A stretch of DNA of 45,588 bases from a virus (Duplodnaviria > Heunggongvirae > Uroviricota > Caudoviricetes): IMG/VR virus record IMGVR_UViG_2531839665_000023, one strand, 5' to 3'. The translations under genes and the position numbers were made by a program. Every line of letters begins with the position of its first letter. Positions within the stretch are counted from its first letter, which is position 1. Under the pieces are notes generated by a model. It had not been told where the DNA came from. It saw only the letters and a program-made list of their open reading frames with translations, and did not search any database. Shown here piece by piece: positions 7,531 through 13,753 of this stretch.

Positions 7531-8094
7531 ATGAGGCTAACCGTGGGTAAGTATCACTGGAAAGTAGAAAAACAGCCTGAGTGGTACGTGAAAGCTGTCA
7601 GAAAAACTATCGCAGCGTTGCCGGGTGGTTACGCTGAAGCAGCTGACTGGCTGGATGTAACAGAGAACGCATTATTTAACCGCCTTCGTGCCGATGGCGA
7701 TCAGATTTTCCCGCTGGGATGGGCAATGGTTTTACAGCGTGCGGCTGGCACTCACTACATTGCGGATGCTGTCGCACAGTCTGCTGGTGGGGTGTTCGTA
7801 TCGCTTCCTGAAATTGAGGAAGTAGAGAACGCCGATATAAACCAGCGCCTGCTGGAAGTCATCGAACAGATCGGGAATTACTCAAAGCAGATTCGTTCGG
7901 CAATCGAAGATGGGGTCGTGGAGCCACACGAGCAGACAGCAATTAATGATGAGTTGTATCTGTCAATTTCGAAGCTCCAGGAGCATGCAGCACTGGTCTA
8001 CAAAATCTTTTGCGCTCCAGAAAAGAGTGACGCCCGCGAGTGTGCAGCTCCGGGCGTCGTGGCGTTTTGTGTCTGTGGAGAAACTAACGCATGA
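7531..8094 (+). CDS. Putative CII-like early regulatory protein
   Basis: 187 aa; position directly after cro; family assignment from memory only. Confidence 0.45.
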   Translation: MRLTVGKYHWKVEKQPEWYVKAVRKTIAALPGGYAEAADWLDVTENALFNRLRADGDQIFPLGWAMVLQRAAGTHYIADAVAQSAGGVFVSLPEIEEVENADINQRLLEVIEQIGNYSKQIRSAIEDGVVEPHEQTAINDELYLSISKLQEHAALVYKIFCAPEKSDARECAAPGVVAFCVCGETNA

Positions 8095-8927
8095 ACAGTT
8101 TAACGGCAAATAACCGTTTGTCGCAACAGCTGGTGGTCAGTGTCGCTGAACACCTGTTGTTACGGCATGAATGCAGATTACCAAATCACCTGGCTGTAAG
8201 TAACCACAGAGAACTTTACCTGACTGTGGGGGGCGAGTTGTGCGGGAACTTAACCGCTGGTTTCGTGACGGAAGAGGGCTTTATGTCCATGTTATTCGTT
8301 GGGAACCAGAAACACAGCGCGTTATCTATCTTCGCAAAGACTACCCGCATGAGTGCTTTAGTCCTTTGTGGAAATTCAGGCGTGATTTTGTTGAGTGTGA
8401 AGGACCACCAGCACATTGATTCTGCCATTCCGGGACGTTACACTGTTCAGGCACCTTATAAAGCGGGTGCCGGGATTGGCGTCCTGGAATTGATCAAGGC
8501 GATATATGACGCGCCAGCGTCTTTTTTATCGTCCGCATTTGCTCACATCAAAGTTATGGTGGGCTGGGCGGGGGCATCGAAAGATGCGCCGGTTTCCTTG
8601 ATCACCGGTTACGCCAACCCCGTTCAGTTCACCACCAGCGAAATTGGCGTTTCCGGTGGTGGAAGTATTTCACCGATCAAGGAGGCTGCCATCATGGCTA
8701 CTGTCCCAGCCCTCACTCGTCTGAATGATGAAGACTTACATAAACTCAGTTATGTAACAACTGCACTACGTGCTCTGCGCAAGGTAACTCTTTCGGATCC
8801 GCAGGCGCATCAGGTTCTGGTAGAAACCCTTCTTAACTTGCAGGCTGAACGTATCCGTTTGGTGGATAAGGCTAATTTTCATATTCACCGTCTCCTGAAT
8901 ATCAGCGGAGGGCATCGTCATGCTTAA
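8091..8927 (+). CDS. Hypothetical protein; ORF of doubtful extent
   Basis: Track ORF; N-terminal third is low-complexity and an alternative frame (8240-8419) reads more protein-like; C-terminal part more convincing. Confidence 0.35.
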   Translation: MNSLTANNRLSQQLVVSVAEHLLLRHECRLPNHLAVSNHRELYLTVGGELCGNLTAGFVTEEGFMSMLFVGNQKHSALSIFAKTTRMSALVLCGNSGVILLSVKDHQHIDSAIPGRYTVQAPYKAGAGIGVLELIKAIYDAPASFLSSAFAHIKVMVGWAGASKDAPVSLITGYANPVQFTTSEIGVSGGGSISPIKEAAIMATVPALTRLNDEDLHKLSYVTTALRALRKVTLSDPQAHQVLVETLLNLQAERIRLVDKANFHIHRLLNISGGHRHA

Positions 8928-9156
8928 TCCGTTGAGCCTCAATATTCGCCGTTTACTTCAGCGTAAAAAAACATCAATTCCTACAGTTGGGCAGTGGTAC
9001 ACCACGCCTGCAGGGCATGTTCTACGTGTTAGCCTGGTTGACCGTGAATGTCAGAAAGTGATTTGTGAACCGCTGGGCCGTAATTACCGCGTCAGTATGC
9101 CGCTTATAGCCTTTCGCTCCGGAAAAAACACGAAGCATCTCGGAGGTGCTGCATGA
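8920..9156 (+). CDS. Hypothetical small phage protein
   Basis: 78-aa ORF coupled to the downstream replication gene. Confidence 0.45.
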   Translation: MLNPLSLNIRRLLQRKKTSIPTVGQWYTTPAGHVLRVSLVDRECQKVICEPLGRNYRVSMPLIAFRSGKNTKHLGGAA

Positions 9157-9959
9157 GTATGGAGCTGATGGTTAAAGCGATGAAAATTCGAGTGGGAAAT
9201 CCATTGCGAAAACTGGTTCTGATTAAGCTGGCTGATAATGCCAGCGATCAGGGCGAGTGCTGGCCCAGCTATCAGCATATCGCTGATCAGTGCGAGATTA
9301 GCAAACGTTCTGTGATGAATCATATTGCGGCCCTCTGTGAGTCCGGGCTGGTAAAAAAAGTCACCAGGAAAGGTGAAAAAGGTAACTCAAGTAATATCTA
9401 TCTTCTTCATCTTGATGGTGCAGGAGATTCACTAGGGGGTAGTGCAAATAATTCACTATCTGGTGCAGCAAATTCACCAGGTAGTGCAGGAGTTGCACCA
9501 GGGGGTAGTGCAGGAGATTCACCCAGAACCAGTCACTCTTTTGAACCAGTCAATGAACCAATAGCTGTTGGTGCATCTGCTGATGAGTCTGTGCGAGTTC
9601 GTTCAAACCGACCGGAATACTCTCCGGAGTTTGAGCAGGCATGGCTGGCATATCCCAAACGTGCTGGTGGCAATTCAAAATCTGCAGCCTTCAAAGCCTG
9701 GAAAGCCCGTTTGAATGAGGGGGTAAAACCCGAAACCATGCTGGAAGGTGTGAAACGCTACGCGGGCTGGGTATCTGCGATGGGTAACAGCGGCACACAA
9801 TTTGTGAAACAGGCTGTCACGTTCTTTGGTCCGGATCGTCATTTCGAAGAATCCTGGGAAGTTCCTGCGGTATCTGCAGCCAGACGCGAGGACCCGTACT
9901 TCAAAGCCAGTTACGACAACGTGGACTACAGCCAGATCCCGGCAGGATTCAGGGGGTAA
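9153..9959 (+). CDS. Replication initiation protein, O-like, N-terminal winged HTH
   Basis: HTH segment (SYQHIADQCEISKRSVMNHIAAL), Gly/Ser-rich linker encoded by iteron-like repeats, C-terminal replication-protein-like region. Confidence 0.75.
   Translation: MSMELMVKAMKIRVGNPLRKLVLIKLADNASDQGECWPSYQHIADQCEISKRSVMNHIAALCESGLVKKVTRKGEKGNSSNIYLLHLDGAGDSLGGSANNSLSGAANSPGSAGVAPGGSAGDSPRTSHSFEPVNEPIAVGASADESVRVRSNRPEYSPEFEQAWLAYPKRAGGNSKSAAFKAWKARLNEGVKPETMLEGVKRYAGWVSAMGNSGTQFVKQAVTFFGPDRHFEESWEVPAVSAARREDPYFKASYDNVDYSQIPAGFRG
9418..9525 (+). repeat. Five imperfect ~21-bp direct repeats (iteron-like) inside the initiator gene; candidate origin
   Basis: GGTGCAGGAGATTCACTAGGG / GGTAGTGCAAATAATTCACT / GGTGCAGCAAATTCACCAGGT / AGTGCAGGAGTTGCACCAGGG / GGTAGTGCAGGAGATTCACCC, followed by GAACCAGTCA repeats. 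Confidence 0.6.
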
Positions 9960-9961
9960 TC

Positions 9962-10450
9962 ATGAGTCTTTTGAATGAAGTTCAGAAATTCATTGAAGCC
10001 CATCCGGGGTGTACTTCCGGAGACATTGCGGATGCTTTTGCTGGTTACTCACGGCAGCGCGTTCTGCAGTCAGCAAGCAAGTTACGTCAGAGTGGGCGTG
10101 TGGCTCACCGTTGTGAAGGGGATACACGCAGACATTTCCCGCGCCTGACTGAGAGAGCACAGGAGCCGGAACCACAACCAGTTCGTGAAACCAGACCTGT
10201 GCGCAATTTCTATGTCGGCACTAACGATCCCCGTGTGATTTTGTGCCTGACCCGCCAGGCTGAAGAACTAGAGTCCAGGGGCTTATACCGTCGTGCTGCA
10301 ACGGTGTGGATGGCGGCATTCCGTGAAAGCCACTCCCAGCCAGAACGAAACAATTTTCTGGCGCGTCGTGAGCAGTGTTTACGGAAAAGCAGCAAGCGCG
10401 CTGTATCGGGTGATGAGTGGTATCTGTCAGGGAATTACGTGGGGGGTTAA
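9962..10450 (+). CDS. Putative regulator with PerC-like C-terminal region
   Basis: 162 aa; C-terminal segment LESRGLYRRAATVWMAAFRE resembles the PerC/Pch family as recalled. Confidence 0.45.
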   Translation: MSLLNEVQKFIEAHPGCTSGDIADAFAGYSRQRVLQSASKLRQSGRVAHRCEGDTRRHFPRLTERAQEPEPQPVRETRPVRNFYVGTNDPRVILCLTRQAEELESRGLYRRAATVWMAAFRESHSQPERNNFLARREQCLRKSSKRAVSGDEWYLSGNYVGG

Positions 10451-10776
10451 TGACGACGTTAACTCAATGCCAGCAGCAGGTGCTGGATATGCTGATTTCT
10501 TATCAGAAAGAACGTGGTTTCCCGCCAACCAATCAGGAGGTGGCAGCCATGCTGGGATACCGTTCGGTGAATGCAGCGGTGGAGCATCTTCGCGCACTGG
10601 AGAAAAAAGGCGTCATCACGATAAAGCGTGGCGTGGCCCGGGGTATCACGCTTCATACCACAGTGAAGGACGACGACAGCGAGGCAGCCGGGATTATCCG
10701 CGCACTGCTTGCCGGTGAGGAAAACGCCAGGCTGCGTGCAACTCACTGGTTACATGAGAGGGGCCTGAAAGTATGA
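10450..10776 (+). CDS. LexA N-terminal DNA-binding-domain homologue lacking the S24 peptidase domain
   Basis: 108 aa from the ATG at 10450; LTQCQQQVLDMLISYQKERGFPPTNQEVAAMLGYRSVNAAVEHLRALEKKGVI aligns with the LexA winged-helix domain; no Ala-Gly/Ser/Lys cleavage module. Confidence 0.75.
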   Translation: MTTLTQCQQQVLDMLISYQKERGFPPTNQEVAAMLGYRSVNAAVEHLRALEKKGVITIKRGVARGITLHTTVKDDDSEAAGIIRALLAGEENARLRATHWLHERGLKV

Positions 10777-11991: not shown

Positions 11992-12987
11992 GTGACCGTG
12001 AGAGCACTACTGACCCCTGAAATTGCCCCGCGTATGGGGATCGTATTGTTCAGGCCAGGTTCAGAGCTGATGCCCCTGTTTATGCAGGGGCGTGTCCTGC
12101 TGGAGCCTGAGCCGGAACGTTATTCATCTTTCGCCAGTGGTGCCGTTCCGGCGGCATCACAACCGCTGGCGGATGATCCTGCCGTTCGGGCCGTGTTCCG
12201 CAATGAGGCAGTGATCCGTCGTGCTGGTGGCGTGGAATGCCTTGAAAGCTGGTTACTTCGTGAAAAGGGCTGTCAGTGGCCTCATTCCGACTGGCACAGC
12301 GAGAACATGACCACAATGCGACACGCGCCGGGCGCAATCCGTCTGTGCTGGCACTGCGATAACCAGCTGCGTGATCAGTTCACGGAACGGCTGGAGTCAA
12401 TGGCAACGGATAACTGTGCCCGCTGGGTGTTGTCTGTCGTGCGTCGGGATCTCGGTTTTGATGACAGTCACGTTGTGACAATGCCGGAACTGTGCTGGTG
12501 GCTGGTTCGTAATGATTTGGCGGATGCCTTACCGGAAAGTGCAGCCCGTAAGGCACTGAGATTACCGAAGCCTGTTGTGCCATCTGTCACCCGGGAAAGT
12601 GACCTTGTGCCTTCGGTTCCTGCCACCAGCATCATCCAGGATAAAGCGAAAAAGGTGCTGGTGCTGAAAGTGGATCCGGAGTCGCCGGAGTCTTTTATGT
12701 TACGCCCCAAACGTCGCCGCTGGGTTAATGAAAAGTACACGCGCTGGGTTAAGACGCAGCCGTGCGCATGTTGTGGAAAGCCAGCTGATGATCCCCACCA
12801 CCTGATAGGCCACGGTCAGGGTGGAATGGGTACAAAAGCGCATGATCTCTTTGTGTTGCCTTTGTGCAGAAAGCATCACGACGAGCTGCATGCGGATACC
12901 GTGACATTTGAAGAGAAGTATGGCTCCCAACTGGAGCTGATATTTCGTTTTATCGATCGTGCGCTGGCAATTGGCGTACTGGCGTAA
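11992..12987 (+). CDS. DUF968-family nin-region protein
   Basis: C-terminal Cys/His cluster (CACCGKPADDPHHL...CRKHHDELH); GTG start per track. Confidence 0.7.
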   Translation: MTVRALLTPEIAPRMGIVLFRPGSELMPLFMQGRVLLEPEPERYSSFASGAVPAASQPLADDPAVRAVFRNEAVIRRAGGVECLESWLLREKGCQWPHSDWHSENMTTMRHAPGAIRLCWHCDNQLRDQFTERLESMATDNCARWVLSVVRRDLGFDDSHVVTMPELCWWLVRNDLADALPESAARKALRLPKPVVPSVTRESDLVPSVPATSIIQDKAKKVLVLKVDPESPESFMLRPKRRRWVNEKYTRWVKTQPCACCGKPADDPHHLIGHGQGGMGTKAHDLFVLPLCRKHHDELHADTVTFEEKYGSQLELIFRFIDRALAIGVLA

Positions 12988-13000
12988 GTGGAGAACGAGC

Positions 13001-13753
13001 ATGAACCTTGAAGCCTTACCAAAATATTACTCCCCAAAATCTCCAAAATTGAGTGATGCCGCACCGGCGACAGGCTCAGGTGGTTTAACGATTACGGATG
13101 TGATGGCTGCGCAGGGGATGGTGCAGTCGAAAGCACCGCTTGGGTTTGCCTTATTCCTGGCAAAAGCTGGCGTTCAGGATCCTCAGTTTGCGATTGAAGG
13201 TCTGCTCAATTACGCGATGGCACTGGATAACCCGACATTGAACAAATTGAGTGAAGAAATCCGGTTACAGATCATCCCTTACCTTGTGAGTTTTGCCTTT
13301 GCTGATTATTCCAGGTCTGCGGCAAGTAAGGCTCGCTGTGAGCCTTGTGCTGGTACTGGATTTCATAATGTATTGCGCGAAGTGGTGAAATACTCCAGAA
13401 GCGGGGAGTCTGTTATCAAGGAAGAGTGGGTGAAGGAACTATGTCAGCATTGTCATGGTAAGGGAGAAGTCAGCACAGCGTGCAGAGGGTGTAAGGGTAA
13501 AGGTATTGTCCTGGATGAAAAAAGGACCCGGCTTCATGGCGCGCCTGTTTATAAGATTTGTGGGCGTTGCAATGGAAACCGGTTTAGTCGTTTACCAACG
13601 ACACTGGCGCGGTGTCATGTCCAGAAGCTGGTACCAGACCTGACTGATTATCAGTGGTACAAAGGATATGCAGATGTCATTGATAAACTGGTTACAAAGT
13701 GCTGGCAGGAAGAAGCATATGCTGAGGTGCAATTAAGAAAAGTGACGAGATAA
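13001..13753 (+). CDS. Q-like late-gene antiterminator
   Basis: Multiple CxxC pairs (CEPCAGTG, CQHCHGKG, CRGCKGKG, CGRCNGNR); last nin-region gene before the lysis region; start at ATG with GGAG upstream. Confidence 0.6.
   Translation: MNLEALPKYYSPKSPKLSDAAPATGSGGLTITDVMAAQGMVQSKAPLGFALFLAKAGVQDPQFAIEGLLNYAMALDNPTLNKLSEEIRLQIIPYLVSFAFADYSRSAASKARCEPCAGTGFHNVLREVVKYSRSGESVIKEEWVKELCQHCHGKGEVSTACRGCKGKGIVLDEKRTRLHGAPVYKICGRCNGNRFSRLPTTLARCHVQKLVPDLTDYQWYKGYADVIDKLVTKCWQEEAYAEVQLRKVTR

Follow-up and report, generated by a model that had tools for sequence, protein, structure and literature searches.

A candidate two-part replication origin, built of dyad iterons and a constant GAACC block, inside the initiator gene of an SfV-like lambdoid prophage

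In phage lambda and in the Shiga toxin (Stx) phages 933W and P27, four to six iterons are followed on one side by a second element that is needed for opening. In lambda, an AT-rich tract and the two nearest iterons form the minimal unwinding unit, and the O protein binds its single strands (PMC7466680). The genes 18 of P22 and L also have their own iterons inside the initiator coding region, with a specificity that differs between phages (PMC8022706). The locus studied here lies in an SfV-like lambdoid prophage, on a stretch of 45,588 nucleotides (45.6 kb; "the window" hereafter means this whole stretch), and consists of a replication initiator gene of the SfV orf39 type (268 amino acids, 9153-9959, + strand) with a repeat array in its middle. 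We propose that positions 9418-9565, in the linker-coding part of this gene, are the two-part replication origin of the prophage. A two-part origin with iterons, a constant core and recruitment of the host DnaB-DnaC is the best explanation as a whole, and we regard it as likely.

The comparison with the lambda O/P system shows both similarities and differences. As in lambda, the proposed origin sits centrally in the initiator gene, where it codes for the linker that joins a DNA-binding N-terminal domain to a partner-binding C-terminal one; the iterons have a second element on one side, and many relatives of the window's initiator precede a true lambda-P family gene (PF06992). However, the N-terminal domain in the window is of the HTH_36 and not of the Phage_rep_O type, the element beside the iterons is a sequence-conserved, phased GAACC repeat (~40% G+C) and not an AT-rich tract, and the window has no P gene. 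Judged from its sequence, the locus is lambda-like in layout, with the origin inside the initiator gene, but is outside the lambda O/P family. The first-pass annotation had called the gene "O-like", which holds for its predicted function and layout but not for its domain, as there is no Pfam Phage_rep_O match. In P22 and L the initiator acts with the DnaB-type helicase gp12, and some relatives of the window's initiator likewise precede a DnaB-type helicase; the window, however, has no helicase gene, and the text consulted in PMC8022706 mentions no constant block for either phage. Neither P22 nor L was among the 60 of 289 records listed in a tblastn search of a phage collection with the N-terminal domain. 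Iteron plasmids such as pSC101, F, R6K, RK2 and P1 use a winged-helix Rep together with host DnaA and DnaB-DnaC, and short direct repeats beside iterons are known as opening elements from the 13-mers of RK2 and oriC. These plasmids resemble the window in having a winged-helix initiator with direct repeats and no element-encoded loader, and so provide a working analogy for its loader-less state. They differ in that a Rep_3 domain and a DnaA box are absent from the window, where the proposed origin lies inside a coding sequence and the repeats beside the iterons are not AT-rich. The genes of the SfV orf39 type share gene, neighbors and iterons with the window, which differs from them in having two copies of GAACCAGTCA, against three in most alleles, and no dam gene downstream.

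The initiator gene was identified from the list of open reading frames (ORFs), Pfam, PHROG and nucleotide comparison. Its ATG shares bases with the stop codon of the upstream 78-amino-acid ORF (ATGA). Pfam HTH_36 (PF13730) matches residues 17-67 with 44.1 bits, against a cut-off of 25, and phrog_270, "replication initiation protein", matches residues 3-267 (E = 1.6e-88). SfV orf39 is 96.7% identical in nucleotides over the whole gene and the copy in Stx2c phages 98.3%, while the corresponding genes of cdtI, mEp460, 2H10 and many Stx2c and Stx2a phages are 96-98% identical. By these matches, the gene at 9153-9959 is a member of the SfV orf39/PHROG 270 initiator family. Neither Phage_rep_O (E <= 0.01) nor Rep_3 was found in it by the Pfam scan. 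Some records name it a DnaD-like primosomal protein or "primosomal protein I"; this name was rejected, given that DnaD_N reaches only 24.4 bits, under its Pfam cut-off of 27, and the C-terminal part has no Pfam or fold match. The N-terminal winged-helix DNA-binding domain comprises residues 1-88 (9153-9416, + strand), as delimited by the Pfam match, the alignment and a table of helices and iteron cores. In the alignment of the family, residues 1-40 are near-constant, with a start shared by relatives (MSMxLMxKAM..KVGN..RKLVLIKLADNA.D.GECWPSY), and residues ~48-60 are variable. The latter are the presumed recognition helix, assigned from the HTH_36 match. Of 5,426 complete E. coli genomes, 897 have the gene in full length; RefSeq labels it there only as "helix-turn-helix domain-containing protein", its replication role being unrecorded.

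The iterons fall between residues 88 and 125 of the initiator. The pattern GTGCANNNNNTKCAC has five + strand matches at 9418-9522 and none elsewhere in the window: iteron 1 (GTGCAGGAGATTCAC, 9418-9432), iteron 2 (GTGCAAATAATTCAC, 9442-9456), iteron 3 (GTGCAGCAAATTCAC, 9463-9477), iteron 4 (GTGCAGGAGTTGCAC, 9484-9498) and iteron 5 (again GTGCAGGAGATTCAC, 9508-9522), the last being followed by a fixed CC before the constant block. A sixth match is the palindromic site 4 read on the - strand. Shuffled sequences gave an expectation of 0.34 matches, and none of 100 shuffles reached six. The same array was recovered by Tandem Repeats Finder and by a repeat search; no second iteron-like array was found elsewhere in the window by the repeat searches and the pattern scan. 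The conserved unit is a 15-bp dyad, GTGCA-N5-TKCAC, with variable flanks, and the arms GTGCA/TGCAC are perfect in site 4 and have one mismatch in each of the remaining four sites. The five direct repeats reported inside the initiator gene by the first-pass annotation were recovered, although their length of "~21 bp" is roughly right only for the start-to-start spacing (24, 21, 21 and 24 bp) and not for the conserved unit. It was also correct that the repeats encode a Gly/Ser linker: 9418-9565 encodes residues 89-136, which form the Gly/Ser/Ala linker GAGDSLGGSANNSLSGAANSPGSAGVAPGGSAGDSP followed by RTSHSFEPVNEP. The left edge of the least stable stretch of the gene, ~45 bp before iteron 1, holds a palindrome, TCACCAGGAAAGGTGA (9361-9376), that looks like a pair of iteron half-sites placed in inverted order; a terminator scan also flags this palindrome, on the - strand.

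The locus was compared with ~175 relatives. An exact match to the constant block retrieved at least 120 viral contigs, and the N-terminal protein alone retrieved 80 genomic loci, a choice made to avoid circularity. The loci belong to at least 20 genera of Gammaproteobacteria, including Pseudomonas, Aeromonas, Shewanella, Marinomonas, Xenorhabdus, Proteus, Providencia, Erwinia, Rahnella, Microbulbifer and Avibacterium, as well as a Cardiobacteriaceae genome. Every gene inspected has the same plan: winged-helix domain, 15-bp dyad array, constant block and C-terminal domain. A 15-bp dyad, mostly of the 5-N5-5 form, stands directly 5' of the block in each relative inspected, and arrays contain ~2-7 dyads, usually 3-6. 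The number of iterons is 4, 5 or 7 even among near-identical alleles (allele L019 has seven, against five in the window), as in other iteron origins. The sequence of the dyad differs among relatives, and the classes found were GTGCA-N5-TGCAC, GTGAA-N5-TTCAC, TGCCA-N5-TGGCA, GGGCA-N5-TGCCC, GTGAC-N5-GTCAC, GTGTA-N5-TACAC and a GTAGGCCCA-type. Distinct segments within residues 48-60 accompany distinct dyads: SKRSVMNH is paired with GTGCA, SKSAVRNH with TGCCA, GRSTVKLH with GGGCA, DRRTAMRH with GTGAT..GTCAC and SRKTAIGH with GTGTA. Distances between dyad cores correlate with those between residues 45-62 (Spearman rho 0.57) better than with those between residues 1-40 (0.24), and none of 500 permutations reached the observed value (Mantel-type test, uncorrected for shared ancestry). 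Single-linkage clustering of iterons merged distinct classes and gave a weak association, and the table of helices and cores and the distance correlation were used instead. A change of the iteron sequence together with the presumed recognition helix is expected if the initiator binds the iterons. With the matches to HTH_36 and phrog_270, this co-variation lends support to the earlier suggestion that the repeats mark an origin. We consider it highly likely that the dyads are the binding sites of the initiator and that the locus is an origin.

The constant block, CC-AGAACCAGTCACTCTTTTGAACCAGTCAATGAACC(AATAG), occupies 9523-9565, with GAACC-type repeats starting at 9526, 9543 and 9556, and is our proposed origin core. 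Exact copies of GAACCAGTCA are found in the window at 9526-9535 and 9543-9552 only, and a partial third copy, GAACCAATAG, at 9556-9565. These shorter repeats after the iterons had been pointed out in the first-pass annotation, and no other part of the locus proved as strongly conserved. The start of the block is recognizable in 174 of 175 distinct homologous genes, and a repeat array directly precedes it in all upstream stretches inspected; the repeats are not absent from homologous initiators. The register "dyad + CC + AGAACC" is identical in the relatives inspected. Of the 80 loci chosen by the N-terminal protein alone, 70 contain AGAACCAGTCACTCTTTTGAACCAGTCA with no more than 5 mismatches in 28 and one more contains it with 8; in the remaining nine, the same repeats are spaced differently or form a concerted sequence variant. 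In distant BLASTN comparisons, Vibrio, Klebsiella and Stenotrophomonas phages match the window over ~44 bp only (9519-9562), with ~95% identity. The block is unchanged across iteron class, C-terminal domain, partner gene and host genus, and its conservation is equal whichever partner gene comes next, be it P-like, DnaC-like, DnaB or other. The number of GAACCAGTCA copies varies by an in-frame unit of 12 bp, as seen at 9536-9555 against relatives such as L004 and L052: three copies are usual among near-identical alleles, four occur in one of them, and the window, with two, has a minority form.

The codons of the block behave differently from those of the rest of the gene. In 63 non-redundant genes from the loci picked by N-terminal protein only, the diversity at positions 1, 2 and 3 of codons 1-66 is 0.22, 0.16 and 0.56, the normal signature of protein-level selection. 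Third-position diversity is 0.05 over the first nine codons of the block, against 0.56-0.59 over codons 1-88, and no other run of nine codons within the first 88 is below 0.36. Arginine in the block is always encoded by AGA (69 of 69), a codon that makes up 8% of arginine codons elsewhere in the same genes, and glutamate always by GAA (62 of 62, against 46% elsewhere); GAG never occurs in the block, while GAT (Asp) does. The substitutions that are found in the block are non-synonymous, namely ACC/ATC (T/I), CAC/AAC (H/N), TTT/CTT/TCT/CCT (F/L/S/P) and CCA/TCA (P/S), and the tolerated changes hit equivalent positions of both repeats (GAAYCAGTMA). Synonymous sites that are constant while amino acids drift are strong evidence for a cis-acting element. 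The block is therefore very probably selected as DNA and not as peptide.

More distant relatives show which part of the gene the block belongs to. In relatives with ~50% protein identity, phased repeats also follow the last iteron: mEp554 has TAATCAGTCA/TAACCAGTAA directly after it, Psychrobacter phage Y8A has 2.5 copies of GAACCTATCAAT, and Pseudomonas phage MD8 has GAACC-N7 four times. Copies are uniform within Shewanella locus L185 and within Psychrobacter phage Y8A, all of them having the same variant, GAATCTATCA or GAACCTATCA. A second HTH_36 family, represented by phiP27 L17 (locus L204, 1975-2901) and by the "O" gene of 569R4 (locus L205, 1635-2576), is similar in having a winged helix, dyad iterons, a constant repeat pair and a C-terminal domain. 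It differs in its N-terminal family, in its iterons (TCAGAWTCTGA) and in its constant repeats, which are AAACATGATCCGCAAG twice or GATCCGTCAG twice. The C-terminal domain of phiP27 L17 is of the window's class, and 569R4 shares the tail and the downstream genes of the window. As phiP27 combines the window's C-terminal domain with other iterons and another constant repeat, the block belongs to the N-terminal family and not to the C-terminal domain. Both AAACATGATCCGCAAG and GATCCGTCAG contain GATC, which could tie the origin of the second family to Dam/SeqA.

In the mechanism that we propose, dimers of the N-terminal winged-helix domain would bind the five dyads, which are two helical turns apart, and form an O-some-like complex, as the co-variation suggests. 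The GAACC block would be the origin core where the complex of initiator and iterons opens the duplex and/or DnaB enters, that is, a functional counterpart of the AT-rich tract of lambda; the constant part of the initiator might recognize the block in double- or single-stranded form. The host DnaB-DnaC would then be recruited directly by the helical domain and tail at the C-terminus, as suggested by relatives that are paired with a phage DnaC-like gene. Whether the block is the site of duplex opening or helicase entry is close to an even question, with the balance slightly on the negative side. Our preferred reading is that of a sequence-specific origin core, which may be recognized by an invariant part of the initiator or by a conserved gammaproteobacterial host factor. 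In a wider version, to which we give a minor chance, the block would be a sequence-specific loading element common to a family of temperate-phage origins across Gammaproteobacteria, and its reader would be either a conserved replication protein of the host or an invariant face of the initiator, which might see it as single strands once the duplex has melted. With such a core in common, iterons, C-terminal adaptor and type of loader (P, DnaC, DnaB or none) could be swapped freely, and loader-less phages would use the host DnaB-DnaC directly.

The C-terminal helical domain (residues ~155-236; 9615-9860, + strand) is a presumed adaptor to the helicase-loading machinery, on the basis of an AlphaFold2 model and of gene neighborhood. 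The model has three main helices and a short one, with a predicted local distance difference test score (pLDDT) of ~80 in the core and a mean of 69. The C-terminal 127 amino acids had no Pfam match even at E <= 10. A PDB sequence search with the domain returned only low-complexity matches to proteinase K-like chains, and a Foldseek search of the PDB with the model gave nothing better than E = 5. The label of phrog_1701, "DnaD-like helicase loader", probably rests on the other half of that profile and was not used. Behind the domain is a C-terminal tail (9861-9956, + strand; ...EVPAVSAARREDPYFKASYDNVDYSQIPAGFRG), a portable module common to otherwise unrelated initiators. The last 76 nucleotides of the gene (9884-9959, ...REDPYFKASYDNVDYSQIPAGFRG) are 94-99% identical in 569R4, PhiR49_1 and 720R4, whose initiators are of another family. 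This identity across families puts a mosaic joint inside the C-terminus and shows a tail that travels with the loader-less downstream context. Tails of the type ...IPAGFRG are found in 35 distinct genes without a loader and in 2 with a DnaC-like partner, and tails ending in W or F in 21 with a DnaC-like partner.

The absence of a lambda P-like or DnaC-like helicase loader downstream, which the first-pass annotation had stated, stood up to a wider search. Scans of the neighboring ORFs with Pfam, PHROG and NCBIfam detected no loader, and tblastn of partner proteins (lambda-P family, DnaC/IstB-like, DnaB and primase-helicase) against the window gave only matches with E > 0.06. The gene directly 3' of the initiator (9962-10450, + strand) is YfdN/PerC-like, with matches to Pfam PerC and to phrog_1324, "transcriptional activator", and is not a helicase loader. 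In the relatives, the gene after the initiator belongs to the lambda-P family in 49 distinct cases (PF06992, E = 3e-58), is a DnaC/IstB-like AAA+ protein (PF01695) in 37, a DnaB-type helicase in 9 and a primase-helicase in 2, while in 35 it is YfdN/PerC-like as in the window, with no replication gene. In 21 Pseudomonas relatives (L131, L138 and 19 other loci) the loader position is occupied by an unknown but conserved 268-amino-acid protein without a Pfam match, a candidate for a new family of loaders or adaptors. The window's own C-terminal class has a DnaC-like gene directly downstream in 7 loci, 3 of which have the window's iterons and 69-74% C-terminal identity; phiP27, also of this class, has a DnaC-like and a DnaB-like gene there. 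The position of this class next to DnaC-like genes in relatives makes recruitment of host DnaC/DnaB the likely route in the window, and we give even odds to the C-terminal domain doing so.

The loader-less layout is also found in complete elements. The complete 37-kb genome of SfV, a phage that forms plaques, shows this layout throughout its early and late-regulatory half. A 44.6-kb circular element of E. coli, recorded as a separate replicon, has the same module and the same gene order from end to end, and its annotation lists neither a helicase nor a loader; this record is the only hint at autonomous replication, and an indirect one. On the evidence of these relatives, the loader-less layout is viable and not the result of decay. 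A prophage that lost its loader and became replication-defective would account for the close relatives that have the same iterons and a DnaC-like gene right after the initiator, and for the lack in the window of the dam gene found in relatives downstream of the initiator and yfdN genes. We consider such a loss very unlikely, since the order of initiator and yfdN-like gene is kept not only in SfV, the circular element and the 35 distinct relatives but also in the isolated-phage records mEp460, cdtI, 2H10 and Ayreon, and since the full-length gene persists in the 897 E. coli genomes.

Several observations weigh against the origin mechanism proposed here. The block is not AT-rich: it has ~40% G+C, and its stability is only ~1.1 standard deviations below the local mean. 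Directly to the left of the iterons, and so on their other side, an AT-rich stretch at 9373-9415 is the least stable of the gene in a nearest-neighbor profile: the 15 weakest 30-mers between 9000 and 10100 all begin at 9373-9389. The stretch is an alternative candidate for duplex opening, so that opening may begin there. Its synonymous sites vary freely, which indicates no sequence-specific constraint. No DnaA box was found within 500 bp, the nearest TTATCCACA-like site, with one mismatch, being ~550 bp off at 8861. The right edge of the block is a mosaic joint in BLAST comparisons, and recombination may add to its uniformity. For the C-terminal domain, no relative of known function could be detected, and gene neighborhood is all that links it to DnaC. 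The co-variation of helix and dyads, given the shared ancestry, is supportive but not conclusive. Finally, a literature search found no experimental work on the SfV orf39/PHROG 270 family, and origin activity is inferred throughout. The search also found no described origin for SfV, cdtI, mEp460, 2H10 or the Stx2c/Stx2a phages, and, for the SfV orf39 family, nothing on the block sequence, the iterons of Stx2c phages or loader-less lambdoid modules. A comparison by eye alone showed no convincing IHF or Fis site in the block. GC skew was discarded as an origin marker, because the cumulative skew merely follows the direction of transcription.

Other explanations of the repeats were weighed against these data. 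The iterons might be operator or copy-control sites, for self-repression of the initiator or DNA pairing, with initiation elsewhere in the phage. Plasmid iterons do serve control as well as initiation (PMC2647930), and the window has no DnaA box near the iterons, nor an AT-rich tract on the side of them where lambda has one. On the other hand, iterons inside the initiator gene are the origin in lambda and Stx phages (PMC7466680) and in P22 and L (PMC8022706). Moreover, no promoter-like site was found in 9000-10100, and an element conserved at the DNA level in a fixed register with the last iteron, ~270-370 bp into the coding sequence, is hard to explain as an operator; this role is quite improbable. 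Another view, which is unlikely though somewhat harder to dismiss, is that the block is a recombination joint for the swapping of N-terminal (origin-specific) and C-terminal (partner-specific) modules, and that exchange keeps it uniform. BLAST matches indeed break at its right edge, the N-terminal half and iterons matching over query positions 1-407 and the C-terminal half over 413-708, and at least 12 C-terminal classes are attached to the same block. However, the block is a phased repeat in which the same C/T change is tolerated in the repeats and the copy number ranges from 2 to 4, relatives with ~50% protein identity retain the type of repeat without the full sequence, and concerted variants occur in Shewanella L185 and Psychrobacter Y8A. 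Phasing, copy-number changes and concerted variants point to a recognized motif rather than to passive homology. The two readings are compatible, as a functional core would also serve as a joint.

The repeats could also be a by-product of the low-complexity Gly/Ser/Ala linker, grown by slippage, with no role as DNA and with an origin that is elsewhere or not defined by sequence. This would fit a region that encodes a flexible linker and changes in frame, by whole iterons and by 12-bp GAACC units. It is highly improbable, because the DNA dyad is conserved and the linker peptide is not, the dyad class tracks the recognition helix, the codon choice of the block is fixed while its amino acids change, and the window has no other iteron-like array. 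Still more remote is an action of the block on mRNA or translation, either as an RNA element or through a -1 shift into the TGA of CTCTTTTGAA that would yield a product of DNA-binding domain and linker. The -1 frame does meet a TGA inside the block, but there is no slippery heptamer and the TGA is lost in TTA variants (6 of 63 genes), and a programmed -1 frameshift was dropped for these reasons. For an RNA element, no Rfam family scored above chance and the strand folds no better than shuffles (z = 0.65). The only Rfam match, sub-threshold and microRNA-like, was caused by the dyad iterons and was rejected as a known RNA element. The sequence-specific origin core remains our preferred reading of the block.

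The initiator lies in a series of genes on the + strand. Upstream are a CII-like gene (7531-8094), an Ash-family gene (8091-8927) and the 78-amino-acid ORF (8920-9156). Downstream of the YfdN/PerC-like gene are a gene with a LexA DNA-binding domain (10417-10776) and, farther along, rusA, KilA-N and DUF968 genes and a putative antiterminator Q gene (12959-13753), whose product was judged by eye. In SfV, 569R4 and plasmid pZ1323HEC0010-3, dam (N6-adenine methyltransferase) sits between the yfdN-like and LexA-like genes. The window has no dam, and its yfdN-like and LexA-like genes overlap at 10417-10450. The segment 15000-21000 of the window has a G+C of 0.38-0.44, against 0.50-0.58 in the flanking phage genes, and may be a cargo or moron region.

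The iteron array alone is of a known kind. What is new here is the family-wide GAACC core, conserved at the DNA level, and its free combination with different iterons, adaptors and loaders. A large family of replication genes in E. coli genomes lacks a replication annotation, and SfV, cdtI and the Stx2c- and Stx2a-converting phages have the same initiator as their replication gene. In Stx phages, replication drives the dosage of the toxin gene (PMC7466680). The dyad iterons together with the GAACC block provide a signature that pinpoints the putative origin in prophages of at least 20 genera, and the table of recognition helices and dyad cores offers natural pairs of initiator and site, a potential specificity code. 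Overall, the block points to a hitherto undescribed origin core that is common to related phages from many bacterial genera. If it is an opening or helicase-entry site, it would be a sequence-defined alternative to the textbook AT-rich unwinding elements, and it could help to explain how some lambdoid phages do without a loader of their own.

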